A stretch of 64,000 nucleotides of DNA, taken from Promethearchaeota archaeon. Its GTDB lineage: Archaea; Asgardarchaeota; Lokiarchaeia; Sigyniarchaeales; SOKP01. Location of the stretch: the NCBI GenBank assembly GCA_016930515.1, contig JAFGGO010000027.1, positions 1-64,000 on the forward strand, given 5' to 3'. Positions 1 through 22,222 of the stretch are shown piece after piece (positions within the stretch are counted from its first letter, which is position 1; the number at the start of each line of letters is the position of its first letter). The position numbers and the translations under genes were made by a program. A model generated the notes under the pieces. It saw nothing but the letters and a program-made list of their open reading frames with translations, did no database searches and was not told where the DNA came from.

Positions 1-294
1 CAACTATTTTAGTAAATCAAATGATTGCTTTTTCTACGATTTTTGTTCTATAGTCAACCTTAATCCATAGAAACCTCATTTTTTTCATATTCATTGTAAT
101 TTGGTTTTTTTGGGTTCCAAGTTTTTTAAATTGGTTATTAAACAAATAAAGAAATTAATATGAAATAATGAGATCTTGCTAAAAGGAAGAAATAAGATAT
201 TATAAAGCATTAAATGAAAAAAAAAGTGTTGATTGTTAAAAATAGTCCCATATTTCAAGAATGATTTTTATTTTTTCGCTTATTATTAAATTGT

Positions 295-1050
295 ATGGAT
301 CTTAAATATCTCAAGCTTTCTATCGAAAATAAGGTAGCTCTAGTCACTTTGCATCGCCCCGACAAGAGAAATGCTCTTTCTCCTGAAGTATTAGGCGAGA
401 TTGAAGCATTATTCACGCAATTAGGCGAAAACAAGGAAGTTAATGTGATCGTATTTACAGGTGGAGAACAATATTTTTCCGCAGGTTTCGACCTTAATTT
501 CGTGCGAACGCTAGAAAAAGTATCGAACGAGGATTTCACGGCTCTCTTTCATAGAGCTTATCGGGCAATGATGTTTTGCACTCAACCCGTCATTGCGGCA
601 GTTGGCGGTCCAGCGATCGCAGGTGGCTTTGATCTTAGCTTGATGTGCGACATTCGGTACGCGTCCGAACGGGCTAAATTTGGCCAACGGGAAATTGTCC
701 TCTCGCTCACTCCCGTCATGGACCCTTTGTGGCGGATCATTGGGTTAGGACGCGCCTTGGAGGTTGCTCTCACGGGTAGAATTTACGACGCACACGAAGC
801 CGAACATATGGGATATGTGAGCAAGGTTTTTCCCGAGGGAAAGTTGCTCGATTCAGTCATGGAAATAGCAAAAACAATGGCGTCTTATGATCGCGAAGTC
901 TTGCACGAAACGAAACAACTCGCCCAAAATGTCGTAAATCAAGACTTGGATGGAGCAATGAGGCTTCAAGAGTGGCTTTTTAGGTCATTTATAGGTTCGG
1001 AAGATAATCATAAGAGGGTGGACGCTCTATTGGAGAGTCTTAAAAAATAA
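295..1050 (+). CDS. Enoyl-CoA hydratase/isomerase (crotonase superfamily)
   Basis: RPDKRNALS, FSAGFDL, PVIAAVGGPAIAGGFDLSLMCDIRYA and FGQRE crotonase motifs. Confidence 0.9.
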   Translation: MDLKYLKLSIENKVALVTLHRPDKRNALSPEVLGEIEALFTQLGENKEVNVIVFTGGEQYFSAGFDLNFVRTLEKVSNEDFTALFHRAYRAMMFCTQPVIAAVGGPAIAGGFDLSLMCDIRYASERAKFGQREIVLSLTPVMDPLWRIIGLGRALEVALTGRIYDAHEAEHMGYVSKVFPEGKLLDSVMEIAKTMASYDREVLHETKQLAQNVVNQDLDGAMRLQEWLFRSFIGSEDNHKRVDALLESLKK

Positions 1051-10151: not shown

Positions 10152-11117
10152 ATGCGTGATACACTCGATCAACTCAGTTTTGATGTTTCACAATTAGTAG
10201 AGAAATATCAAGGAAAAAAATTATACGATTTCTTCCAAAATTACGACATTAGGTCAAATAGCATGGGTGAATTCATGGAATTTTCTTGGATAGCTAAAGA
10301 TTTCGTTCAAAACATCGATTTAAACAAAACAAAAGCAAAAATTCTTTTTAACTTAAAAGTTGCCCTGAATATTGGAGAAAAGATCGAAATACGCTTGAAA
10401 CAAAGGGGTTTGAAAAGTTTAAGAGACTTGACCCATTCGCTCAAGTATAGGTGTTCTGCTCTTGATGCGCTCCGCTTGATAAGAAACAACAATCACGAAA
10501 AACTCATGCATAATCGATATATTTGCGATTTAGATGTTGCGTTTTGTTTTAAATTGGAAGATCTATTATTTATTGATATTGAGACATTAGGGATCTTTGA
10601 TAGTCCGTTAATTATTGTGGGAGTTGGGTATTTTCGTGATTTGCAATACGAGATTCGCCTTTTTTTTGCCCGCACGCTTGAAGAGGAGATCTCCATTTGC
10701 GAGCACCTACGAAACGAAGTATTTCCTAGATATAAATGTTTTGTAAGTTATAACGGCAAGAGTTTTGACATACCCTTTATTGCAAATAGATTCTTGTATT
10801 TTTTTGATGAAAATCCAATGATTCATCCCCAAGACATGCCATATAAGGAGAGTAATACCCTTTATCATCACATTGATTTATATCACAACTGTCGTCGTAA
10901 GTACAAGGGCCTGTTCGATAGTTTTTCTCTGACTAATATGGAAGAAAATCTCTTGGGTTTTTATCGAACAAACGAATTACCAAGTAATCTCGTCGGAGCT
11001 TGCTATAAAAAATATTTGGAAAATCCCGAAAGATACATCGGTTTGGTAAAAGAGTGCATTGAACACAATTATTACGATGTGTATTCTTTGCCTCTTATAC
11101 TTGAAAAATTATTATGA
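10152..11117 (+). CDS. YprB-like RNase H-fold (DEDD) exonuclease-domain protein
   Basis: FIDIETLG, YNGKSFDIPF, HIDLY, SLTNMEENLLG, HNYYDV; HhH-like IGEKIEIRLKQRG. Confidence 0.82.
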   Translation: MRDTLDQLSFDVSQLVEKYQGKKLYDFFQNYDIRSNSMGEFMEFSWIAKDFVQNIDLNKTKAKILFNLKVALNIGEKIEIRLKQRGLKSLRDLTHSLKYRCSALDALRLIRNNNHEKLMHNRYICDLDVAFCFKLEDLLFIDIETLGIFDSPLIIVGVGYFRDLQYEIRLFFARTLEEEISICEHLRNEVFPRYKCFVSYNGKSFDIPFIANRFLYFFDENPMIHPQDMPYKESNTLYHHIDLYHNCRRKYKGLFDSFSLTNMEENLLGFYRTNELPSNLVGACYKKYLENPERYIGLVKECIEHNYYDVYSLPLILEKLL

Positions 11118-11213: not shown

Positions 11214-12386
11214 ATGCAACTAGGCGGACTCATTAAAAAAGAATTCGGAAGAATAAAAAGCGATAAACGTACTCTCGTGCTTCTCTTCTTCATTCCCCTC
11301 ATTCTCATTATCATCTTTGGACTTGTAACTGGAGGAGGTCCTACAAAATTCTTTACGGCAAGTATTATTACCCGAGATAGCATGCCCTTGGGTCAAGAAG
11401 TCAACGGTACGGCTTATTACGATGAAATATTTATATCTACCGTGCGAGATAATTGCTCCGCTTTTGGATTCCATTCGGCTTATAATAGCACGACTGAGCA
11501 AGAATATGATTCTCACTACGCCAAGTGTTTAGATCTTTTAAAAAACGGTGTTATTGGTGCAATTATCATTCTTCCAGAAAATTTTACCGAATCGGTTGAG
11601 AATGCCACTTCAAGCAATCCTCTTGTAAAAAGTGTTAATCCAGTCTTGATTTATGCCATAGACGGTTCGGATATAGAATCAGTAAACGCTATTAAAATGG
11701 CAATACAAGAACCATTAGCGCTCTTTCGCTCTCAAGTTGGAATGTTGAACAATTTTACTACGATAATGCCATCGCTCGAATTTTCAGTACCTTTTTGGGA
11801 AAGTCAGATGCTCAATTACGCTTTAGGATTGATGCTCCCGTTGATCATAATTGGTACGACAATGAACTTGACATCATTATCAATAGTATCTGAAGGACCC
11901 TTGGCACGGATGATGCTCACGCCCACGGCAAAAAATGAGATTATTCTTAGCAAAACCATCGCAAATATAGTTATAATGACTCTTCAAGCAACGGAAATTT
12001 TCGTGATGTTATCCTTTTTTGGATTGTATTGCTTGGGTTCGCTATTTGATTTTTATGCAACACTATTGCTCACGGGTTTATGTGGTATTTCAATTGGACT
12101 ATTCATTTCCGCTCTTGCTACTACGGAACAAGCTGCGAATCAAATGTACTTGATGTTTTTTATCGTATTAATAATATTTTCAGGAATGTTTGGGGTTGGT
12201 GGCACTGACGAGATGAAGTTTGTAACAAGCTTGCTTCCATTAGGATATTCGAAAGAATTAATTGTAAGCATTACCCTAAGAGGGGCACCAATGAACATGC
12301 TTTCAGCGTTTAAAATGGTAATAATTAGCTTGGTATTTCTATTATTGGCTTATTTAACCTATAGATTTAAAAAGGTGGAAGTATGA
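11214..12386 (+). CDS. ABC-2 type transporter permease with large extracellular domain
   Basis: KKEFGRIKSDKRTL elbow helix, TM1, extracellular loop, RMMLTPTAKNEIILSK, GLFISALA, LLPLGY. Confidence 0.88.
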   Translation: MQLGGLIKKEFGRIKSDKRTLVLLFFIPLILIIIFGLVTGGGPTKFFTASIITRDSMPLGQEVNGTAYYDEIFISTVRDNCSAFGFHSAYNSTTEQEYDSHYAKCLDLLKNGVIGAIIILPENFTESVENATSSNPLVKSVNPVLIYAIDGSDIESVNAIKMAIQEPLALFRSQVGMLNNFTTIMPSLEFSVPFWESQMLNYALGLMLPLIIIGTTMNLTSLSIVSEGPLARMMLTPTAKNEIILSKTIANIVIMTLQATEIFVMLSFFGLYCLGSLFDFYATLLLTGLCGISIGLFISALATTEQAANQMYLMFFIVLIIFSGMFGVGGTDEMKFVTSLLPLGYSKELIVSITLRGAPMNMLSAFKMVIISLVFLLLAYLTYRFKKVEV

Positions 12387-13639
12387 CAAGAAAGGATAAT
12401 ACAACTAAGAAAAAGTTACCCCTTTTTAAATCCCGTAGCAACAGTCTTTTTCGATTCTCTCGTCAAGTGAAAAAGGAATTCAAGCTTCTGTGGACCGACA
12501 AGTTCAATATCTTTTTAGCGCTCGTATTACCTCCCATGATCATTTTCTTAATTGCCTTCACTACGGGTGTCGAGGAAGAAATCTCTCCAATTAATTGCGT
12601 TGTTGTTACTTACGATTCTAACATGATCACTACTCCTAATAATTATACTGAGTATTTATTTAATAATATCACAGACTTTTCACACGATAACTATTCGTAT
12701 CTGTATCTAAATGCCGTGAATAATTCACAATATTTAACGCCCTTAGAATATAATAATCAGTTCTATCTAAACGCAACTACCGATATATACGCCATGGAAA
12801 CGGCAAGGAATTATCTGGCTGAAGGGCATGTATCTGTTATTATTGTAATCCCTATTGATTTTTCCGAAATGCTAACGCTTGGATTACCCGCATTTGTGAA
12901 TTGCATTGTTGACGGTTCGAGCGTGTTAACTCTTCAGGACAATTTAAACGCCGTGTTGGATTCCGTCAATGTATTCGTTTCAGAAAACAATCTCACGCCT
13001 CAGATAGAGCTGGTGGGATTCGAAGAATTTTCAGTTCCTAAAAATTTGAACTTTAAGTTCAACGCAATGGTAACGTTCATCCTTCCAATCATGGCATTTG
13101 GGCTCCCAATCGTACTGACAATCCTGGTTATAGTAAAAGAAAAACCCATAGCCCGATTGTTGCTCACTCCCGTAAAACGAGCAGAAATATTACTCTCAAA
13201 ATATGTTACTTATAGTGCGATTTTAGCAATTCAAACTTTATTATTGATTGTCAGTTCGGTATCGCAAGGACTCTATTGCGTGGGTAGTTATTTTGATTTA
13301 TTCTTGGCATTATTTATGTTGGGATTTTCGGCTTTGGCGTTGGGGTTGTTCATATCCACGATATCTAAGACGAAAACGGAAGCTAACCAATATTTTTTCA
13401 TGTCGTTTATTCTCATTATCGTGCTTAGCGGGTTGTTCATTCCGATAGATTCAATGCCGCTTTACCTGCAAGTTGTAGCATGGATCCTTCCCTTGAGCCA
13501 CGCAGGACCGATGATTAATAACGTTTTAACGAAAGGAATGCCCGCCATAGGTTTCGATTTTTATTGCCTATTAGCAGTTTCATCCGTCTTATTTGCCTTG
13601 AGCGTTATATTATTTCAAAGAAAACAATACGAGGCATGA
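12383..13639 (+). CDS. ABC-2 type transporter permease (second subunit)
   Basis: KKEFKLLWTDK, sequon-rich extracellular loop, RLLLTPVKRAEILLSK, SGLFIPIDSMP..ILPLSH; ATGA overlap with the upstream gene. Confidence 0.88.
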   Translation: MTRKDNTTKKKLPLFKSRSNSLFRFSRQVKKEFKLLWTDKFNIFLALVLPPMIIFLIAFTTGVEEEISPINCVVVTYDSNMITTPNNYTEYLFNNITDFSHDNYSYLYLNAVNNSQYLTPLEYNNQFYLNATTDIYAMETARNYLAEGHVSVIIVIPIDFSEMLTLGLPAFVNCIVDGSSVLTLQDNLNAVLDSVNVFVSENNLTPQIELVGFEEFSVPKNLNFKFNAMVTFILPIMAFGLPIVLTILVIVKEKPIARLLLTPVKRAEILLSKYVTYSAILAIQTLLLIVSSVSQGLYCVGSYFDLFLALFMLGFSALALGLFISTISKTKTEANQYFFMSFILIIVLSGLFIPIDSMPLYLQVVAWILPLSHAGPMINNVLTKGMPAIGFDFYCLLAVSSVLFALSVILFQRKQYEA

Positions 13640-14673
13640 ACATGTCCCTAAAAAAATCAAGTCCAATCGTTGTTGAGGTCGACGATCTGAATGTTTCCTT
13701 TGGAAAGAAGAGGGTGGTCAAAAATGTTTCACTCACGGTAAATTCTGGCGAAATTATTGGGGTTTTTGGAATTTCTGGTGCGGGAAAAACTACGATGATT
13801 CGCGTGATAACTTGCCAGCTCAAAAAAAAATATTGGACGGGAACAGTTAAAGTAACGAATTTATCCGCTGCGAGAAATAAAAATCAATCGAAAATATTGG
13901 GAAACATTGGATACGTGCCACAGCTGGAGGAATTGAATTTATATTACGATTTTAAACCCTACGCAAATATCGATACTTTTGCCTCGACATACGGAATGGA
14001 TGTAAAAAAGGCAAAAGATATCGCAGAAAATTTATTCACGATTCTTGACATACCAAAAGATACTTGGAGCAAGAAACTAAAAAAGATGAGTGGTGGTGAA
14101 AAAAAAAGAGTCTCAATGGCTTTAGGCCTTATTCATCAACCGGCAATTCTATTCTTGGACGAACCTACGACGGGAGTTGACGCATACAAGCGATATTCAA
14201 TTCTAACTTATTTAAAAAAATTGAACGTGCAATTAGGGACGACGATGTTTATCATTAGCCACGACATGGAGTGTTCCTTAGTTTGCGATAAGGCCGCTAT
14301 AATGCGGGAGGGAAAGTTGCTTGAATTTGGAAAACCAGCAGATTTAATCGCTTCACTTCCCAGTAATGGCGTTATTGCTTCATTTACGATAGAAGATTTA
14401 AACAAGAAGAAAATCGAAGAAATAAAAGATTTTTCTCCTGTTAGAAACATTATTAGGGCGGGAAACGATGTGATTGAGGTTTTAATGGATAATTACGACG
14501 AGAATATTTCCGACTTGGTCCAGCATATTATGAACGCAGGAATTAAGATCACATCAATGACTAAGGACATCGCAACTTTTCGGAGATATTTCCAAATTCG
14601 TATTCAAGACGAAGAGGAGAAGGAAAGAAGAAATATCGATCATTTATCAGAATCCAATGACATGAATAATTAA
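13636..14673 (+). CDS. ABC transporter ATP-binding protein
   Basis: GISGAGKT, GYVPQ, MSGGE, LFLDEPT, ISHD all intact; start reassigned to ATG 13636 (ATGA overlap with the permease stop). Confidence 0.93.
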   Translation: MNMSLKKSSPIVVEVDDLNVSFGKKRVVKNVSLTVNSGEIIGVFGISGAGKTTMIRVITCQLKKKYWTGTVKVTNLSAARNKNQSKILGNIGYVPQLEELNLYYDFKPYANIDTFASTYGMDVKKAKDIAENLFTILDIPKDTWSKKLKKMSGGEKKRVSMALGLIHQPAILFLDEPTTGVDAYKRYSILTYLKKLNVQLGTTMFIISHDMECSLVCDKAAIMREGKLLEFGKPADLIASLPSNGVIASFTIEDLNKKKIEEIKDFSPVRNIIRAGNDVIEVLMDNYDENISDLVQHIMNAGIKITSMTKDIATFRRYFQIRIQDEEEKERRNIDHLSESNDMNN

Positions 14674-14694: not shown

Positions 14695-17600
14695 ATGAAA
14701 AAGAAAACAATTAGTGCGGTAGTCAGATCCTCTGAGATTTTTAAAGTAAGCCCTAAATTCAAGAGAAAGCTTAAAGTGTTTATAATTATCGCGATTCTCA
14801 TCTTGATACCTATAATTGGAATGGCTTTGGTAAACATTCCATATATTTCCTATTTTACACCAGAAGAAGTAGACGAATACAAGGACAGCATGTATTTCTT
14901 CTCAAATTCCCATCAAAATTCCGCTTCGGGTTTGTTTATAGAGGCCGATATTGATTCTAACTTCAGGATCGCAACTGCAATTAATTGGACTAGTTTCAAT
15001 CCACAAATTTTTAACCTTATAAATCCCGTTGATAACGATTATTTAAAATCCATCTCAAAACCTAATTTTTACCTCGATTATCTCTTCGATAAGCAAAACA
15101 AAGACGGTTCATTTTCAGATATTGGAGGTTTAGGAGACATGTTTACTACTTATCAGGTCATTGATACGATTATGACCTTGAACGAATCCTATATTAATTC
15201 CATTCGACATCAAGACAAGATTAATAGGATCATGACATTTCTAAATTCCTCTTCATATACGGATCCCGCGAATCTAACGACCGGATTTAAAAATAGTCAA
15301 TTTTCGTTATTACCGGATATGATATCAACAAGTAATGCAGTGGAAATTGCGAACTATTTTTCTTGGGATTATTTTTTAAACAATCAGAACATTACAAATT
15401 ACATACTTGGATCCTTAAGGACTATTACAATTGGATCACTCATAACTGGATGGGGGTATTCTAATTCGTTATTATCTGCAGATCCTGATGCCGAAAGCAC
15501 TTTTTATGGAATTAAGGCTTATCTTGGATTGAATAAATCGTATTCTACTGCGGACAAGATATTATTTATGGGATTTTTTAATGATATTTACGATCCACTT
15601 AATGGTGGATTTAGGAATACATTAATATCAATAAATGATATTGAATCGACATATTATTGTCTTTCTTCAATAGAAAGGCTAAATTATAGTTATCCAGTTT
15701 TGTTCAACGCAAGTCGAACTCTTAATTTTATATTAAATTGCTCCGATCCTGATGGTGGTTTCGGTTTAAGACCAGATATTTTAACAAATTACTCCTCTGA
15801 TTTCGTTTCTTCAGGGGCAGCAATGAAAGCTTTAGCCATTCTCGAGCGGAACTTTAACTTCAGCGAAGAACAGCAACTCGCCATTAACGAAACAAAAAGC
15901 AGGTTTTACACTTGGTTATCTGGTTATCAGGCGTTAAACGGTTTATTTGGACACATCACCATTGAGTCCAACTATTGGGGCGTTTTATCTGCCATTCAAT
16001 ATTACCCTTCGAGCTTTCTCGATCACATTAATGTTAAAAATATATTCGCTTATATAAACAGTTGCTATGTCATTGAGACGGGAGGCTATTCGAGTGAGCC
16101 ATTCATACCTTCGAGTCTTTTTTCAACCTATCTTGCTATTAATATGTACGATATTTTTACATCCTATGTGGACGATTTGTGGTTGTATAACGAGTCCGCA
16201 ACTGAAGCATATATTGCGTCGCTTCAAAATCCGGATGGTGGTTTTAGAATTGGAAACGATCAAGATAGTTTATTCCGTCAACTTGGAGTGTTTTATTCCG
16301 TTATAAACGATTTAATCGATGTTAATACTTCGATTGTGGAAAGCACTTATTGGGCTGTTGAATCGCTTGATATTCTTGGCGCCCTAAATTTAATAGATTT
16401 AAATAATCTAACTCATTTTATCCGGTCGTGTCAGAACGCAGATGGGGGGTTTGGGTTGTTCTTAGGCTTTTCCTATAGCGATATTATTTCAACATATTAT
16501 GCCTTGCATGTTTTTTATTTGTTTGATTCTGAACCCCTATCGAAAATATTGGCAATAAATTTCCTCAAGAACGCTCAAAACACTGACGGAAGTTTTTCTC
16601 CCATGCCAACTTTATCCATGCTCGGTTTGTCGGTTTCCTTCTTTTTGGTTACTTATCTCGGGGCAAAGGGGTTGTACGATTTTTCTTATCAACCTACTGA
16701 TATTTGGGCTTTTTTGGATTGGTTCGTACTGTGTGTTGATAAAAAAACGGGAGGCGTGGGAGATGTGCAAGGATTTGGCGGTGATTTAAGAAACACGGTA
16801 TACGGAATGATCATAATTGACGATTTAAGGTACGATCGAGCATTCGATCCAGAACCGTGGACGACGCTTTTTACAAGGATCTTATTAGTCGAAATTATTG
16901 CAATTGTTGGTTTTATCTTGTTAAAAATGAGTTCTTACGCAAATGTGGTTATATTAAGAAGAATTAAAGCTAAATTAGGGATTGGTGAAAAAATGGAAGT
17001 ATCTTATCTTCGCCGCTACCCTGCGATTCGATGCGAAAATCTGAGCATTTTTGCGGGGAGGAAATTGATCGTGAATTCAATGTCTTTAACTTTAGAACAT
17101 GGAGAAATATTAGGAGTTCTCGGCGAAAGTGGTGCTGGAAAATCCACTTTCGTGAAGAGTCTGCTCGGAATGAGAAAATTTAAGGGGACAAACCAAGTAT
17201 ATGGAATGGATGTAAAAAAGAAATCAAAAAAAATGCGTCCAATTTATGGATATGTACCTCAGGATTTGAGCAAGATCTATGAGGATTTTACGACATATCA
17301 GAACATTCTTTATTTTGGCAGGCAATACGGCTTATCCGAAAGAGAAATTAGAAGGAAAGCGAAACGCATTCTGAGAAGCCTGGAAATTGATGATAAAATG
17401 CACGAACAAGTGAAAAATCTTTCTGGAGGTCAAAAAAGGCGTGTAAGCATTGCAATTGGCTTAATCCACGACCCGATCATCGTCTGGATGGATGAGCCTA
17501 CTTCAGGATTGGACCCTGTTGTACGAGAGAATTTATGGCACGCTCTCACTCGAATTAACGAAGAATTTAATACGACACTCATCGTGATTACCCATTATCC

Positions 17601-17976
17601 AGAGGAATCGCGCTTTTGTAATAAAGTTGCAATATTTGGAAGGGGGCGTGGTTTGATAGATTTTGGACATCCGAAGGATCTCTTGGGGCAATTACCAGGA
17701 AAGGGGAGAACAATTGGATTAATATTCAGAAATACGGAAGAAAAAGCCCTTGAAAGACTCGAATCGATATTAGGTATTAGTAAAGCATTAGAAAACAAAG
17801 CAGGAATGGAATTCTCCCTTCTTTCTGATCTTAATATAAGAGAACTTAAAAGTAGAATCGAACTTGAATTTGGACTCTCATCAATAGCCGAATTAAAGCA
17901 AACAGATAGTAAAATGGAGGAATATTTTCGATACAGGGCCATGGATGTCCCTTCTGACGAAATAGATCTTGGTTAG
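14695..17976 (+). CDS. Fusion: TM + prenyltransferase/squalene-cyclase-type repeat region + TM + ABC ATPase
   Basis: Repeats QNKDGSF, SDPDGGFG, QNPDGGF, QNADGGFG, QNTDGSF plus D/E-x-x-ST-Y-Y/W helices; C-terminal GESGAGKS, GYVPQ, LSGGQ, WMDEPT, ITHY. Confidence 0.85.
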   Translation: MKKKTISAVVRSSEIFKVSPKFKRKLKVFIIIAILILIPIIGMALVNIPYISYFTPEEVDEYKDSMYFFSNSHQNSASGLFIEADIDSNFRIATAINWTSFNPQIFNLINPVDNDYLKSISKPNFYLDYLFDKQNKDGSFSDIGGLGDMFTTYQVIDTIMTLNESYINSIRHQDKINRIMTFLNSSSYTDPANLTTGFKNSQFSLLPDMISTSNAVEIANYFSWDYFLNNQNITNYILGSLRTITIGSLITGWGYSNSLLSADPDAESTFYGIKAYLGLNKSYSTADKILFMGFFNDIYDPLNGGFRNTLISINDIESTYYCLSSIERLNYSYPVLFNASRTLNFILNCSDPDGGFGLRPDILTNYSSDFVSSGAAMKALAILERNFNFSEEQQLAINETKSRFYTWLSGYQALNGLFGHITIESNYWGVLSAIQYYPSSFLDHINVKNIFAYINSCYVIETGGYSSEPFIPSSLFSTYLAINMYDIFTSYVDDLWLYNESATEAYIASLQNPDGGFRIGNDQDSLFRQLGVFYSVINDLIDVNTSIVESTYWAVESLDILGALNLIDLNNLTHFIRSCQNADGGFGLFLGFSYSDIISTYYALHVFYLFDSEPLSKILAINFLKNAQNTDGSFSPMPTLSMLGLSVSFFLVTYLGAKGLYDFSYQPTDIWAFLDWFVLCVDKKTGGVGDVQGFGGDLRNTVYGMIIIDDLRYDRAFDPEPWTTLFTRILLVEIIAIVGFILLKMSSYANVVILRRIKAKLGIGEKMEVSYLRRYPAIRCENLSIFAGRKLIVNSMSLTLEHGEILGVLGESGAGKSTFVKSLLGMRKFKGTNQVYGMDVKKKSKKMRPIYGYVPQDLSKIYEDFTTYQNILYFGRQYGLSEREIRRKAKRILRSLEIDDKMHEQVKNLSGGQKRRVSIAIGLIHDPIIVWMDEPTSGLDPVVRENLWHALTRINEEFNTTLIVITHYPEESRFCNKVAIFGRGRGLIDFGHPKDLLGQLPGKGRTIGLIFRNTEEKALERLESILGISKALENKAGMEFSLLSDLNIRELKSRIELEFGLSSIAELKQTDSKMEEYFRYRAMDVPSDEIDLG

Positions 17977-17988
17977 GTGTTTTAAACA

Positions 17989-19722
17989 ATGACAATTATA
18001 GAAAATCTCTCGAGAAAAAAGGAACTTGAAACGCTCCGATTAAAGATCGTAGATGCGATCAGATATTCAACGAGCTATTGGATGATATTTAAGGAAAAAA
18101 CATTTGGTATCGCAACTATTTTGGACATAATATACAAGCGTTCTTATATTGAAGTCTTATTCTTTACAAAATACGATGTGTTAAATTTTAGCGTGCCTTT
18201 ATTGAAAATTTCCACACCTATTGAAACTGAAGTTGATTTTAACGAAATTCTTCTTGAGCCGGATATTGATGATGATGGTCTCGTGAGCCCAAAAAAGATA
18301 ATACAACGCCTAAACAATCTTATAAAAAACGAAATCAATCATCATATTGCTATTTTAGACGAACAAATAATGTTAATTCAAGAAAAATACGAGAATTACA
18401 CAATAGAAGATAATCCATACAAGAGAGTTATTTTTATTCATTTCAAGAACTTTTACATATCGTTAAAAGTTGATTTCGAGAAATATCCCCTTGCTCCAAA
18501 ATTTTCTTTTTCAAAATATCTATCGAAATTATGTTCTTTAAACCAATTTTTGGACAAAAAATTTTTCAAGAATTGGGATAGTACTAATGCTCCCAATGTG
18601 ATAGAATGCATCGATCTTCTTGTAGGGATTATCTTAGAAAAACAAAATTTTGATAAGTTACCAAATGGTTCTCAGCATGTAATTCTTGAAAACTTAACGG
18701 TAAATTCTTCCTTCAGGAAGATTTCTTTTAAGATACTTCGCGGTCAATCAATAGGAATTATTTATTCCATTCAATACCCTAAAAAAGATAAAGAAATATC
18801 AAATCCATTAGACGAGTTCTTTCAAGCGATTTCAGGTAAAAACACCTCTTTTAATGGAAAAATTAAAATTTTTGGAAAAAATGTGCAATTGTTATTGAAG
18901 AGCGAAATGGAAAAAATTGTTACAATATCATCAGATACTGATGTATCATTTGGAGCTTCAACTATTTTTAGAAAAATGATCAAAAATTATCATCCAAAAT
19001 TCCAAGGGAATGAAACCAAGAAATCTATTCAAGATTCTCAACTGAAGATTAAAATAGGAAAGTTCCCAAAAATATGGACTGTTTATGAAGCACGAAGAAG
19101 AAGATCTAAAAAGGATTACATTTCAAAAATTTTAAAATTAACTAGTTTATATGATAGAAAAAACGAAAAAATCAAGAAACTGTCGAAATTAGAGCAAATA
19201 TTGTTTCAAATCTCTAATGCACTTTTGCAAAAACCTTTCTTGATTCTGCTTTCGTTAAGTTCAACATATTTGGGGCGCTTAGAAATTGAAAAATTAAATA
19301 AATCTATCTCTAACATTGAAAGAAAATTTCATGTTTCCTTCATCATTCACGGCTCGAAAGATGTAATTTCGAGTTGCGATCAAGTCATGACGATTACAGA
19401 AGAAAAAATTGATATAGGATCTGTTGAAGATTATGTGCATAAATTACCACAATCTGGAGAGATTATAACTGTAGAATTAAGCAATCCAGACCGTGCTGCA
19501 GTGAAGGAAATGCGTTCTCTTGATTCAGTCTTCATCATTGAAGAGAGAAGGAACGAGAAATATAAGTTATTCGTTAAAGAGGATCCTGAAATAATCCTCC
19601 TTTATTTATTGGAATTGTTTGGTCCAAAATTGTATAATTTTAAGCGTTTTAAAGCGACTTTAGGAGAATATATTGAATTTTTAGAAGGTCGCAGATTAGG
19701 TACGCAATATAAATTGAGGTAA
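17989..19722 (+). CDS. Putative UBC/RWD-like domain fused to a degenerate ABC ATPase
   Basis: ISLKVDFEKYPLAPKFSF...KNWDSTNAPNVIECIDLL; ABC-like ISFKILRGQSIGII, GKIKIFG, KKLSKLEQ..ALLQKPFLILL lacking Walker A GKT and Walker B DE; LPQSGEIITVE tail shared with the other ATPases of the operon. Confidence 0.6.
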   Translation: MTIIENLSRKKELETLRLKIVDAIRYSTSYWMIFKEKTFGIATILDIIYKRSYIEVLFFTKYDVLNFSVPLLKISTPIETEVDFNEILLEPDIDDDGLVSPKKIIQRLNNLIKNEINHHIAILDEQIMLIQEKYENYTIEDNPYKRVIFIHFKNFYISLKVDFEKYPLAPKFSFSKYLSKLCSLNQFLDKKFFKNWDSTNAPNVIECIDLLVGIILEKQNFDKLPNGSQHVILENLTVNSSFRKISFKILRGQSIGIIYSIQYPKKDKEISNPLDEFFQAISGKNTSFNGKIKIFGKNVQLLLKSEMEKIVTISSDTDVSFGASTIFRKMIKNYHPKFQGNETKKSIQDSQLKIKIGKFPKIWTVYEARRRRSKKDYISKILKLTSLYDRKNEKIKKLSKLEQILFQISNALLQKPFLILLSLSSTYLGRLEIEKLNKSISNIERKFHVSFIIHGSKDVISSCDQVMTITEEKIDIGSVEDYVHKLPQSGEIITVELSNPDRAAVKEMRSLDSVFIIEERRNEKYKLFVKEDPEIILLYLLELFGPKLYNFKRFKATLGEYIEFLEGRRLGTQYKLR

Positions 19723-19728
19723 GAATTG

Positions 19729-20496
19729 ATGATAAAAAGCATATACTTGATGCAAGAAAACGGAGTATTGTTATATTCAAAAGAATATCAGAATGTCTAT
19801 TTTGATACTAACCTTTTGATCGGCTTTTTTGCTTCAATAGCCAACTTTAGCAGAGAAGCCTTAAACACGGCTGTGAAAAATGTTGATTTGGGAGAGGAAA
19901 ATAAGGTCATTCTTCAAGCTAATCCAAAAGAAGGGCTTATGGCTGCGGCGATTGTGAGTCCTGGGGATAACATTTCCCTTATTCAAGAGATTTTAACCAA
20001 TATTATCTTGGATTTTATCAACGAATTTCCCTCGTTCGAAGATCCTGAAAGACTTGACCGTGCAACAATCGAATTAATTTTTAAGGTTAATATGAGGAGA
20101 AAGACATTTCCCTCACCACCCCTACTTCTTACTGCTTCTTTAATCCTGTTGACTCCCGTTCTGATTATTCTCGTGTTCATCTCAATATATTTAACTAACG
20201 CGTTTCAAGAACTGTTCTACAATTTCACATTCAGTTTAGTAGTTTATACATCGATTACATTGTTATTTCTCACGGTAATTCCGAACTTAATTTCTGGTTT
20301 CTTAGCTCCAGATAAGAGATATGCGTGGTTTAATACATTTGCAATCATTGCTTTCGAAGTTGTTTTTTATGTGGTATCAGTTGAGCGATTATTTGCTCAA
20401 ATAACTTTAGCTAACCTTCCCATAAATTTCTTGTTGTCAATTGCTTCAGCGTATTTTGGATTTCAATTGTCTTCCCGCAGATATCTAAAAAAATAG
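19729..20496 (+). CDS. Longin-like N-terminal domain fused to about 4 TM helices
   Basis: IKSIYLMQENGVLLYSK...LLIGFFASIANFSREAL pattern followed by hydrophobic helices; GAGGT upstream of ATG 19729. Confidence 0.65.
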   Translation: MIKSIYLMQENGVLLYSKEYQNVYFDTNLLIGFFASIANFSREALNTAVKNVDLGEENKVILQANPKEGLMAAAIVSPGDNISLIQEILTNIILDFINEFPSFEDPERLDRATIELIFKVNMRRKTFPSPPLLLTASLILLTPVLIILVFISIYLTNAFQELFYNFTFSLVVYTSITLLFLTVIPNLISGFLAPDKRYAWFNTFAIIAFEVVFYVVSVERLFAQITLANLPINFLLSIASAYFGFQLSSRRYLKK

Positions 20497-20539: not shown

Positions 20540-22222
20540 ATGGACGAAGAATTAATAAAAGCGTTTTTAAATACGAATTGGAACTGCTTGAATCGAAAAG
20601 ATATTATTGAAAGATTGCAAAAAAACACTTACGATATTATCGTGATTGGTGGTGGGATCACGGGTGCTGGTGTTGCAAGAGAAGCTGCGTTAAGAGGATT
20701 AAAAATTGCGTTAATTGAAATGCAAGATTTTGCAGCGGGGACTTCTTCGCGCAGTTCAAAATTAGCTCATGGGGGCATAAGGTATTTGGCAAGTGCGGAG
20801 ATGGAATTAGTAAAGGAAGCCACAACTGAAAGAAACTGGTTAAGGGCACACTTACCGCACTTAACTCGGCCCATCCCGTTTTTATTCGCTAACTGGGAAG
20901 GTGGGAAAGACAAAAAAAGATCGATAAAAGCCGCAGTTAAGCTATACGATTTTTTAAGCGATAATGACCAGGAATTCAAGAATTATAAGCAGCATTCATG
21001 GCTTGAGCCCGAAGAAATCGCAAATGTGGAGCCTGAAATGAAAAAGGACGGTAATTTAGGTGGTGCCATCTATTATGATAATAATATAGACGATGCCCGA
21101 TTAACAATCGAGACCATAAAAGAAGCTATCATTCGCGGTTCCGATGCGTTAAATTACTGTAAGGTCATCGATTACATAAAGGTAGATGGAACGATTGTTG
21201 GCGTGAAATGTGAAGATCTAGAGGATAAGATCACATTTAGTATCAACGCAAGACAAGTTGTAAACGCAACGGGGATATGGACCGATCAATTGCTTGAAAT
21301 ATACCCCGATGATGTTCCAAAACCTCTTATTCGTCCCACAAAAGGCGTTCATTTAGTATACAAGAAGGAACATGTGAAGAATCGAATGGCAACAATAATT
21401 CGCTCAATAAATGACGGAAGGGCTTTTTTCATCTTACCAAGGGGCGATTTTACGCTTATAGGAACAACAGATACGGATTATAACGATGATTTAGCAAATC
21501 CATATTGTGCAAAAGAGGACGCAGATTATTTAATTGCTTCCGTGCAATATTACTTTCCAAAGGCGGAACTTGAATACAAAAACATTGTTTCGGCTTATGC
21601 TGGTATAAGGCCCTTGGTAATGCAAAAAGGTAAATCCGAAAGCGAAATATCTAGAAAACACTTGATCTTTTTTTCCGAAGACGGCTTGTTATCGATCACG
21701 GGAGGTAAACTCACGACTTTTAGGAAAATGGCAGAAGATTTATTCTTGGAATTAGAAAAAAAGAACATTTTTAAAGAAATTTCGCGGAACGAAGGTTTTT
21801 CAAAGCAATTATATGTGTCATCTTTCGAGAGAGAGATATTTGATGAAAAAGTTAAAAAAATAGATCTTATTTTAGATCAAAAAATAATTGATTTATTATA
21901 TCAACAATACGGAAGAGGAGCGCTGGAAATCTTAGAGATTGCTTCAGAAAATCCCTCTTATATAGAACCATTAGAAAAAAACTCACAGTTCATCCCTGCA
22001 GAAATAATATATATCCTTCGAAATGAATTTGCACCCCACTTAATTGATGTACTTTGCCGTAGGACTGAAATATCTATTCTTATTCGGCACGACAAGCAAA
22101 AAGGGATTGCAAATAAGGTTGCGAGACTAATGGCATCTGAATATTTGTGGGATGAAAATAAAACCCAAAATGAAATTAGCATTTATTTAGAACATATTAA
22201 AAAATCCGTGGAATTTGTGTAA
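20540..22222 (+). CDS. glpD: FAD-dependent glycerol-3-phosphate dehydrogenase (GlpD/GlpA family)
   Basis: GGGITGAG, GTSSRSSKLAHGGIRYL, DDARL, KGVHL, IGTTD, AGIRPL, GGKLTTFRKMAE. Confidence 0.92.
   Translation: MDEELIKAFLNTNWNCLNRKDIIERLQKNTYDIIVIGGGITGAGVAREAALRGLKIALIEMQDFAAGTSSRSSKLAHGGIRYLASAEMELVKEATTERNWLRAHLPHLTRPIPFLFANWEGGKDKKRSIKAAVKLYDFLSDNDQEFKNYKQHSWLEPEEIANVEPEMKKDGNLGGAIYYDNNIDDARLTIETIKEAIIRGSDALNYCKVIDYIKVDGTIVGVKCEDLEDKITFSINARQVVNATGIWTDQLLEIYPDDVPKPLIRPTKGVHLVYKKEHVKNRMATIIRSINDGRAFFILPRGDFTLIGTTDTDYNDDLANPYCAKEDADYLIASVQYYFPKAELEYKNIVSAYAGIRPLVMQKGKSESEISRKHLIFFSEDGLLSITGGKLTTFRKMAEDLFLELEKKNIFKEISRNEGFSKQLYVSSFEREIFDEKVKKIDLILDQKIIDLLYQQYGRGALEILEIASENPSYIEPLEKNSQFIPAEIIYILRNEFAPHLIDVLCRRTEISILIRHDKQKGIANKVARLMASEYLWDENKTQNEISIYLEHIKKSVEFV

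Follow-up and report, generated by a model that had tools for sequence, protein, structure and literature searches.

The window, meaning the whole stretch of 64,000 nucleotides analysed here from a Promethearchaeota archaeon (an Asgard archaeon of the Loki type), contains a conserved six-gene operon whose fourth gene, P0001, encodes an ABC ATPase joined through the membrane to a large repeat-bearing ectodomain. The features of P0001 and its operon partners are summarized in Table 1.

Table 1. Coordinates in the window of the six operon genes and of the domains and motifs of P0001.
Feature	Position	Strand	Remark
Gene 1, ABC-2 permease P0007	11214..12386	+	extracellular loop ~160 aa
Gene 2, ABC-2 permease P0006	12383..13639	+	extracellular loop ~170 aa; 4-nt overlap with gene 1
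Gene 3, second intact ABC ATPase P0005	13636..14673	+	
Gene 4, P0001: TM1, predicted double-toroid ectodomain, TM2, ABC ATPase	14695..17976	+	1093 aa
P0001 N-tail, aa 1-27, cytoplasmic	14695..14775	+	10 Lys/Arg; positive-inside
P0001 TM1, aa 28-50	14776..14844	+	KD peak 3.27
P0001 first ectodomain helix, aa 56-71 (model 6-21)	14860..14907	+	assigned to C-terminal toroid
P0001 inserted toroid, aa 84-389, 'gamma' position	14944..15861	+	folds alone (model)
P0001 C-terminal toroid, aa 390-715, 'beta' position	15862..16839	+	adjoins membrane (model); strongest Prenyltrans signal
P0001 motif TGGvGDxxGFGGDLRN, aa 685-700	16747..16794	+	most conserved non-framework ectodomain motif
P0001 TM2, aa 727-748, then RRIKAK	16873..16938	+	KD peak 2.54
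P0001 ABC nucleotide-binding domain, aa 776-1005	17020..17709	+	catalytic motifs all intact
P0001 C-terminal domain, aa 1006-1093	17710..17976	+	as in DrrA/GldA-type ATPases
Gene 5, P0002, N-terminal domain and degenerate (dead) NBD	17989..19722	+	
Gene 6, P0003, soluble domain ~125 aa and at least 3 hydrophobic helices	19726..20496	+	

Pfam searches of P0001 revealed Prenyltrans repeats (PF00432; E 4e-29, four stretches) and an ABC_tran domain (PF00005; E 5e-26, aa 794-937), and its repeat motifs (four strict QxxDG[GS]F plus six [DN]G[GS]F) alternate with D/E-x-x-S/T-T/Y-Y/F helices. With the hydrophobicity profile and the motif scan, these results agreed with an earlier sequence-only reading, which had described one open reading frame with a transmembrane helix at residues 28-50, a repeat region, a second transmembrane helix and a complete nucleotide-binding domain (NBD). 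TM1 is probably an uncleaved signal anchor and possibly a cleaved one; about 675 residues separate it from TM2, and a linker of about 30 residues leads from TM2 to the NBD. The ectodomain is placed outside the cell because it is bounded by two TMs, the charges follow the positive-inside pattern and the NBD is necessarily cytoplasmic. By this topology, the repeat region lies between the TMs and opposite the NBD, and would not share the cytosolic location of prenyltransferase beta subunits.

The sequence-only reading had assigned the same orientation, citing also the many N-x-S/T sequons; the orientation stood, but the sequon argument lost most of its force. P0001 carries 15 sequons in the ectodomain and 3 after TM2, and across 34 homologues the density was 22.6 per 1000 aa in the ectodomain versus 9.8 after TM2. 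Shuffles of each part gave expected densities of 14.2 and 5.2, respectively. The excess over shuffles was similar in the ectodomain and the NBD, and sequons were dropped as proof of an outside location; the excess mostly reflects an N/S/T-rich composition and is unspecific to the ectodomain.

Sequence motifs identify the NBD of P0001 as an intact ABC ATPase of the DrrA/NodI/ABCA type. Walker A (GESGAGKS at 810), LSGG (at 909) and Walker B (IVWMDE at 929) are present, and in the homologue alignments all three are invariant across the family, as are the Q-loop Gln856 and the H-loop His967. Its best profile matches were DrrA, NodI and GldA models, with a drrA model E-value of 8e-51, a match too weak to reach that model's equivalog cut-off, and the GldA model aligned over residues 778-1079. 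The nearest solved NBDs were those of ABCA3/7/1/4 (E 1e-56 to 1e-48; ABCA3 2e-56). The C-terminal domain is collinear with the C-terminus of P0005, whose own NBD is also intact and is 32% identical to the fused one (E 1e-51).

Structure modelling predicted with high confidence that the ectodomain folds into two alpha/alpha toroids, the barrel fold and number that the sequence-only reading had proposed from the repeats. The whole-ectodomain model reached a pLDDT of 90.9 and a pTM of 0.90, and residues 84-389 modelled alone gave the same values (90.9 and 0.90). Among the matches listed, the nearest structures for both toroids were prenyltransferase betas (Z 24-30, rmsd 2.3-3.0, 15-22% identity): the whole ectodomain matched RabGGTase beta with Z 29.9, rmsd 2.7 and 22% identity, and residues 84-389 matched FTase beta with Z 25.9 and rmsd 2.4 over 261 aligned residues. 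Terpene cyclases scored well below these (Z 17-19 among the matches listed), and toroids of glycosidases or thioester domains gave Z 13-18 among the matches listed. The proposed kinship to GGTase/FTase beta subunits and terpene cyclases was thereby recovered at the level of structure. The Prenyltrans Pfam signal was uneven between the halves, at 3.5e-22 for the C-terminal toroid versus 2.4e-07 for the other half.

The alignment ranges suggest a nested order of the two toroids, like that of the beta-gamma didomain in class II terpene cyclases, because single-toroid chains aligned about 280 residues across the model range 7..664, SHC was collinear over 456 residues (chain 10..628), and the match of the excised residues 84-389 to GGTase-3 beta began beyond the first helix of the latter (chain range 43..303), so that the excised part lacks this helix. 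In such an order, the toroid formed by the first helix and the C-terminal half, within about 6-12 residues of both TMs, would sit directly on the membrane.

The motif analysis confirmed the earlier statement that the signatures of both enzyme families are missing. In prenyltransferase betas, Zn2+ is bound by the Asp and Cys of DxCY and by a His. A motif scan found no DxCY in P0001, and neither DxDD nor DxDTT was present in P0001 (regex D.DD) or in consensus sequences built from 34 and from 18 homologues. The homologue alignments revealed no conserved His in the ectodomain, and the family-invariant Asn700 aligned to the position of RabGGTase beta that we take to hold the Zn-ligand His (BLASTP register, RabGGTase beta fragment). 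The CGEQ thioester motif was absent from the ectodomain, where the Cys contexts are YYCLS, LNCSD, NSCYV, RSCQN and VLCVD, and thioester domains of the alpha2-macroglobulin/complement type gave structural matches of Z 13-17 only among the matches listed. Conserved Cys residues occur only at the repeat-framework position xxCxxxDGGF; Cys pairs were considered as disulfides or metal ligands and set aside, this position being common to RabGGTase beta. Across the wider family, invariant ectodomain residues were mostly Gly, Phe and Asp of the repeat framework, with the 685-700 motif as the exception: D690, F694, G695 and N700 were invariant down to 33% identity and D697 was invariant or nearly so. 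For PPTA repeats of a prenyltransferase alpha subunit (PF01239), the genome itself (94% complete) gave one sub-threshold match of 22.7 bits against a cut-off of 29.5. By its sequence, the ectodomain has neither the Zn site of protein prenyltransferases nor the DxDD acid of cyclases and is apparently non-enzymatic; the two invariant Asp of the 685-700 motif could just as well belong to a catalytic or metal site of a new kind.

The partner genes point to an exporter. Both permeases, P0006 and P0007, belong to ABC2_membrane_3 and have their large outer loop after TM1. Their nearest solved structure was an insect ABCH chain (database title 'ABC transporter G family member 23-like'); we take this protein to be a lipid exporter. 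P0005 likely starts at the ATG at 13636, giving an ATGA overlap with the permease stop. In P0002, LSKLEQ stands in place of the signature and LLSLSS in place of Walker B. The operon was found in 25 loci, with identities falling to 32-38%, and in one (L032) it was kept through a gene-order rearrangement. Two ABC2_membrane_3 genes precede the fusion in 22 of these loci; for the remaining three, the permease flank was ended by a contig end, was unresolved or contained one permease only. The dead-NBD gene is present in all of the 25 loci whose sequence includes that flank, and the sixth gene in most. By its sequences, this Asgard operon specifies a heteromeric type V (ABC-2/ABCA-like) exporter with two distinct permeases and two distinct live ATPases. 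Complex predictions combining the ectodomain (aa 51-718) with the two permease outer loops, run with alignments, scored 0.34, 0.01 and 0.01, which weighs neither for nor against an association. A promoter and terminator scan gave fewer sites than shuffles; its models are bacterial and not applicable to an archaeon.

The fusion is genuine. At 90% identity, proteins that carry it form >100 clusters, drawn from several public sources, with >100 full-length fused homologues at 47-66% identity to P0001, and because it recurs in so many clusters from independent assemblies it is no misassembly at the junction. Relatives of the whole ectodomain were only proteins of about 1040-1150 aa or fragments, and no unfused one was found; two of the objections that the sequence-only reading had raised against itself, a faulty junction and homologues existing only as separate genes, were thus answered. 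The fusion was present in 33 of the 68 genomes sampled from its own family, in one copy per genome, and was rare in other Asgard families. The operon is accessory: since about half of the sampled genomes of its own family lack it, some of them ~100% complete, it does not represent a housekeeping lipid pathway. A literature search on the fusion, Asgard prenyltransferases and ABCA-like Asgard pumps found no description.

The same genome encodes a 365-aa toroid protein, built of a leader, one toroid and a TM anchor at the C-terminus, and further, larger toroid proteins in open frames of 1006-1478 aa. An atlas labels 14-22% of members in some archaeal single-toroid clusters as ribophorin II (PF05817). 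This label was dropped as unsupported: PF05817 had no match in this genome or the controls and none in Pfam scans of both halves (E up to 10), and a literature search on the link found no paper.

Our preferred explanation, held tentatively and with somewhat less than even confidence, is a type V exporter carrying a tethered, non-catalytic extracellular module that accepts or binds hydrophobic, probably isoprenoid, cargo. One live ATPase displays, in a single chain, about 675 residues outside the cell on a hairpin of two TM helices, and this toroid pair would catalyse neither of the known reactions, prenyl transfer or cyclisation. The pump would extract a hydrophobic, most likely isoprenoid-tailed, molecule from the membrane, and the toroid pair would take it up as a tethered outside acceptor; the cargo might be an archaeal lipid, or else a polyprenyl-linked glycan or something similar. 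We infer the role of isoprenoid-lipid acceptor from the kinship of the fold, which by itself does not imply prenyl binding, and the lipid-exporter type of the pump. TM2 links the ring and the NBD in one covalent chain, so ATP-driven movement could also reach the ring. Such an arrangement would resemble the outer domains of ABCA proteins, or the TM-anchored LptC and MlaD, which take lipid from ABC motors. Surface-protein lipidation, one use that the sequence-only reading had offered for the domain, gained no support from any result here.

Among other explanations, an unlikely one is that the toroid pair serves as an extracellular sensor or receptor, with an outside ligand gating the fused ATPase by way of TM2, and perhaps also acting on the dead ATPase and the small membrane protein, comparable to BceAB-type substrate sensing. 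The direct covalent link that TM2 and the ~30-aa linker make between the ectodomain and the NBD, the missing catalytic motifs and the extra non-transport parts that always accompany the operon (the dead NBD, and in most loci the sixth gene) are consistent with it, but two intact ATPases and two ordinary permeases fit a working pump, profile searches found no dedicated signalling output domain in the operon, and sensing can coexist with an acceptor role. Slightly less probable again is enzymatic activity of the ectodomain at a new active site, for example as a cyclase, hydrolase or lyase that works outside the cell on the exported molecule; the site would lie at the beta-gamma interface or in the conserved GD...GGDLRN motif. 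Class II cyclases use a beta-gamma didomain as their catalytic scaffold (PMC12324236), and the ectodomain resembles it; D690, D697 and N700 vary little or not at all down to 33% identity, and many (alpha/alpha)6 glycosidases match (Z 13-18). Against this, DxDD/DxDTT, the Zn triad and a thioester motif are all missing, the glycosidase matches are clearly weaker than those to prenyltransferases, and the conserved motif is in register with an ordinary RabGGTase beta repeat and therefore may be structural.

That the toroids form a surface scaffold or adhesion module, as one of the organism's several extracellular toroid proteins, with the ABC part merely anchoring or regulating its display, seems quite improbable. 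The other toroid proteins of the genome (365 aa; open frames 1006-1478 aa) would suit it, but this ectodomain was never found without the NBD and always lies inside an exporter operon, which argues for a role within the pump. Uptake is the reading to which we give least credence, and very little: the ectodomain would be a tethered substrate-binding domain, as transcobalamin or intrinsic factor is for cobalamin. Transcobalamin also uses an alpha6/alpha6 barrel, and tethered binding domains exist in some ABC importers; however, both the permeases and the NBDs belong to the ABC-2/type V exporter group, and the toroid pair fills nearly the whole ectodomain, with no room for a separate beta domain of the cobalamin type. 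The transcobalamin-like ligand-binding option of the sequence-only reading is weakened accordingly. No transcobalamin chain was among the 50 matches listed per structure search, an absence that carries little weight by itself.

If the exporter with an outside acceptor is taken one step further, the operon would encode a new archaeal envelope machine. Its ABCA-like pump would extract an isoprenoid lipid or a polyprenyl-linked glycan and pass it to a double ring that derives from prenyltransferases and is tethered outside the cell. We regard this fuller version as rather doubtful. If it is true, Asgard archaea would have an equivalent of the Lpt, Lol and Mla hand-off systems of bacteria, and the toroid that underlies eukaryotic protein prenyltransferases would have a non-catalytic, extracellular use. 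Eukaryotes have no closer known relatives than the Asgard archaea, and how these organisms construct and reshape their envelope and protrusions is poorly understood. Here the pump ATPases are most like eukaryotic ABCA lipid exporters, and the outside of the pump bears a fold with which eukaryotes bind geranylgeranyl and farnesyl groups inside the cell. Among ABC transporters, we have seen no other design that links an ATPase across the membrane to a large ectodomain. If the ring binds isoprenoid lipids, the operon would be the first candidate in archaea for a lipid-extraction or hand-off machine, with a clear set of parts. Because the family is well defined, has one copy per genome, is highly conserved and is confidently modelled, expression and binding studies are feasible.

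Compared with known systems, the ectodomain shares the (alpha/alpha)6 toroid of the PF00432 prenyltransferase betas (RabGGTase/GGTase-3, GGTase-I and FTase) and their repeat signature F-I-x-x-C-Q-x-x-D-G-G-F ... S-T-Y-[YW]-A-L. Unlike them, P0001 has two toroids per chain, located outside between two TMs and fused to an ABC ATPase, with the invariant Asn700 in place of the Zn-ligand His and no DxCY. Class II terpenoid cyclases (squalene-hopene cyclase, oxidosqualene cyclase, and drimenyl or copalyl diphosphate synthases) also have two homologous toroids, one apparently inserted after the first helix of the other, and align collinearly with the ectodomain over 400-490 residues. The ectodomain differs from them in having no DxDD/DxDTT and in the relative orientation of its domains (rmsd 7.6-8.2), and it is bitopic, whereas these cyclases are monotopic enzymes of the cytoplasmic face.

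The pump itself resembles the type V exporters (DrrAB, NodIJ, GldAFG and RbbA; ABCA/ABCH) in NBD family and in all NBD motifs, in its ABC2_membrane_3 permeases with a large outer loop after TM1 and in its heteromeric 2+2 composition. The additional dead ATPase and small membrane protein of this operon set it apart from the usual members, and we know of no type V exporter in which a TM hairpin displays a 675-aa toroid pair ahead of the NBD. LptC of LptB2FGC and MlaD of MlaFEDB are TM-anchored extracytoplasmic lipid acceptors of ABC machines, and MacB, LolCDE and NosDFY are mechanotransmission ABC systems. With all of these, P0001 would share the concept of a cytoplasmic ATPase that powers work on a hydrophobic cargo, or its hand-off to a domain positioned on the outer face next to the permease. 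The folds used there (beta-jellyroll, MCE and beta-helix) are unrelated to toroids, and to our knowledge the acceptor in such systems is either a protein of its own or a portion of the permease and is never fused to the ATPase, as the toroid pair is in P0001.

Analysis of the operon carrying the fusion gene shows a type V exporter of 2+2 layout, one of whose motor subunits bears a double toroid outside the cell that is predicted to hug the membrane. The locus lies in an AT-rich stretch (GC ~31–39% in 2-kb windows), and the genome it comes from measures 4.0 Mb at 94% completeness. Domain searches with the fusion protein (P0001) revealed matches to Prenyltrans (PF00432, E 4e-29) in four stretches and to ABC_tran (PF00005, E 5e-26) at aa 794–937. 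The repeats described in the sequence-only reading were present as four strict QxxDG[GS]F and six [DN]G[GS]F copies, and the NBD was complete, as that reading had claimed, with GESGAGKS at 810, LSGG at 909, IVWMDE at 929 and an invariant H-loop His967. Because a hydropathy scan gave two strong TM peaks (28–50 and 727–748), the N-terminal tail (aa 1–27) carries 10 K/R and RRIKAK follows TM2, the 675 aa between the TM helices are predicted to face outward and the ATPase inward. Sequons had also been taken to place the repeats outside; across 34 homologues they were indeed denser outside than inside (22.6 vs. 9.8 per 1000 aa), but shuffles (14.2 outside and 5.2 inside expected) attributed this excess mainly to composition, and sequons were rejected as topology evidence.

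Features of the operon, its surroundings and the compared loci (coordinates refer to the window unless a locus or genome is named)
Feature	Coordinates	Strand	Description
Upstream gene	10152-11117	+	321 aa; RNase_H_2 superfamily domain (E 4e-25), also faint PolB-exonuclease match; just upstream of operon
Operon gene 1	11214-12386	+	ABC-2 permease (P0007)
Operon gene 2	12383-13639	+	ABC-2 permease (P0006); overlaps gene 1 by 4 nt
Operon gene 3	13636-14673	+	Intact ATPase (P0005); ATGA overlap with gene 2
Operon gene 4, fusion ORF	14695-17976	+	P0001, 1093 aa; 21 nt past gene 3
Operon gene 5	17989-19722	+	577 aa, cytoplasmic; ~220-aa N-terminal domain and degenerate NBD
Operon gene 6	19726-20496	+	256 aa; ~125-aa soluble head and at least three hydrophobic helices
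GlpA-like gene	20540-22222	+	FAD-dependent glycerol-3-phosphate dehydrogenase (DAO + DAO_C, E 2e-55)
Paralogue P0276	L002:1246-2343 = G000:C130	+	365 aa; single Prenyltrans toroid (E 6e-20)
P0277	L002:25-1059 = G000:C130	+	344 aa; adjoins P0276
Large downstream protein	L009:20679-23204	+	~1470 aa, Loki-type genome; weak Prenyltrans match, ~5 kb downstream of operon
Locus L032	G294:C172:75096-86254		Other family of the same class

To evaluate whether the fusion is real, we searched a 5.8-billion-protein collection, which returned 677 matches. Both Pfam domains were present in all of the best 120 clusters of these matches, drawn from NCBI, JGI, ENA and Logan assemblies; most were full length (~1000–1070 aa, 47–66% identity), with a few truncated fragments. 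The named homologues come from Promethearchaeota/Lokiarchaeota MAGs, with single rows labelled Hodarchaeota and Hermodarchaeota. Exhaustive HMMER searching with the ectodomain only gave whole-length matches solely in proteins of 1042–1153 aa or shorter fragments, and ranks below E ~1e-31 held only repeat-level matches to other toroid proteins. The recurrence in independent assemblies and the ectodomain result therefore exclude both misassembly and the occurrence of homologues only as separate genes: the fusion of toroids to an ATPase is genuine.

Of the 301 genomes sampled across the phylum, 40 matched an ectodomain profile (E <= 1e-20). These included 33 of the 68 genomes of the window's own family (its own genome counted apart), a single genome from each of two further families in the same class, and one from a different class, whose 1085-aa frame is full length (E 2e-101); the last three of the 40 gave weak, partial matches. 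Several ~100% complete genomes of the window's family had no match at this cut-off, and with presence so patchy the fusion is accessory rather than universal among Loki-type Asgard archaea.

Exporter genes adjoined the fusion in 25/25 loci examined, down to 32–38% identity, and the six-gene order was identical wherever both flanks were available; several of the 25 loci had an unresolved gene or a flank truncated by the end of the contig. Gene 6 was missing in the single deep-branching genome represented by L013 and L033; in L032 the genes were rearranged and still linked (gene 5 on the opposite strand, then ATPase, fusion, permease 1 and permease 2). Over the NBD and C-terminal domain the fused ATPase is 32% identical to P0005, and neither lacks any of the motifs. 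The gene 5 NBD is predicted to be dead, because LSKLEQ stands at its signature position and LLSLSS at its Walker B position. Genes 5 and 6 matched no Pfam family in a Pfam scan and are conserved together with the pump. The fused NBD was grouped with DrrA, NodI, RbbA and GldA (NCBIfam), its nearest solved NBDs being those of ABCA3, ABCA7, ABCA1 and ABCA4 (E 1e-56 to 1e-48), and the nearest solved relative of P0006 was an insect ABCH chain ('ABC transporter G family member 23-like', 5e-11). Judged from these sequences, the operon is predicted to encode a heteromeric type V (ABC-2/ABCA-like) exporter.

The GlpA-like gene begins 43 nt past the last operon gene and is absent from that position in the other loci, two of which (L009 and L010) carry an FAD_binding_4 + CCG pair some kb downstream instead. 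Upstream of the operon, L009, L010 and L012 contain small GTPase genes (Arf/Ras/RagA-like).

The ectodomain (aa 51–726) was modelled with AlphaFold2 from a 34-sequence alignment, yielding ~25 long helices (pLDDT 90.9, pTM 0.90); aa 84–389 modelled alone folded equally well (pLDDT 90.9). Foldseek returned RabGGTase beta as the best match to the whole model (E 6e-11, TM-score 0.72 by target). VIA-align gave Z 29.9 for RabGGTase/GGTase-3 beta (rmsd 2.7, 281 aligned, 22% identity), 25–27 for GGTase-I and FTase betas, and weaker scores for terpene cyclases (17–20) and for glycosidase, epimerase and thioester-domain toroids (16–19). With aa 84–389 alone, FTase and GGTase-I betas scored Z 25.9 (rmsd 2.3–2.4), and squalene-hopene cyclase (SHC) and other cyclases were weaker (16–18).

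Single-toroid structures aligned over ~270–330 residues each, yet their range spanned ~4..665 of the whole model. The GGTase-3 beta match began at chain residue 43 with the excised aa 84–389 vs. 15–16 with the whole model, so helix 1 is missing there, and SHC and oxidosqualene cyclase aligned collinearly over 456–488 residues (rmsd 7.6–8.2; SHC chain 10..628). From these alignment ranges only, we read the first helix (aa 56–71) as part of the C-terminal toroid (390–715), with the toroid of aa 84–389 inserted after it. Given this nested order and linkers of ~6 and ~12 residues to the two TM helices, the C-terminal toroid should sit directly on the membrane.

Neither DxCY nor DxDD was found in P0001, in agreement with the earlier reading. 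BLASTP of a RabGGTase beta fragment against aa 640–726 aligned a 22-letter stretch of the fragment with CVDKKTGGVGDVQGFGGDLRNT; the His of the fragment, which we take to be a Zn ligand, aligned with Asn700, invariant among homologues down to 33% identity. The wider family alignment contains no conserved His; conservation of His73 is confined to the closer homologues. Conserved Cys 349, 457 and 680 (579 partly) occupy one common framework position per repeat, xxCxxxDGGF, which is also where Cys lies in RabGGTase beta. No CGEQ thioester occurred among the P0001 Cys contexts, and no PPTA alpha subunit scored above threshold in the window's genome. Invariant ectodomain residues in the wide alignment were mostly framework Gly/Phe/Asp, except for a membrane-proximal motif, TGGxGDxxGFGGDLRN (685–700). 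On these catalytic-site comparisons, the ectodomain appears to lack the defining chemistry of prenyltransferases and class II cyclases, yet keeps the scaffold of both.

Other toroid proteins in the window's genome comprise P0276 and larger ones with open frames of 1006–1478 aa. P0276, whose toroid lies between an N-terminal hydrophobic leader and a C-terminal TM with RRRK after it, is a predicted membrane-anchored extracellular single toroid; the C-terminal end of P0277 is actin-like, and an internal stretch of this protein has several CxxC pairs, possibly inserted zinc ribbons. Given these further proteins, this lineage appears to use extracellular toroids repeatedly as a surface module. In the ESM Atlas, some archaeal (Bathyarchaeota-rich) ~300-aa single-toroid clusters carried a Ribophorin_II (PF05817) label on 14–22% of members, for which we found no support in the window's genome, and double-toroid clusters of 587–595 aa occurred in Actinomycetota.

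The typical cargo of type V pumps is lipids, lipid-linked polymers or hydrophobic metabolites, the prenyltransferase-type nearest structural kin bind C15–C20 isoprenoid chains in the toroid funnel, and in archaea both membrane lipids and glycan carriers are isoprenoid. On these grounds, and because the ectodomain always accompanies the pump, we tentatively propose, at slightly less than an even chance, that the toroids form a tethered module that binds or accepts the hydrophobic molecule moved by the pump. Mechanical coupling would be possible as well, since the toroid is covalently linked to the NBD by way of TM2. In descending order of likelihood, the ectodomain might instead be a sensor, which we consider unlikely, or a new enzyme, which seems rather doubtful; a surface scaffold is improbable, and the binding domain of an importer highly improbable.

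The literature searched contained no published description of the fusion or operon, and public databases hold the fusion under automatic names only ('prenyltransferase/squalene oxidase repeat-containing protein' or 'ATP-binding cassette domain-containing protein'). As a type V ABC exporter, the system is unprecedented in its accessory ectodomain. Functional analogues of the toroid module are presumably LptC, MlaD and the outer domains of ABCA proteins. The domain order as we read it is that of the beta-gamma didomain described for class II terpene cyclases (PMC12324236), whereas the inter-domain angle differs.
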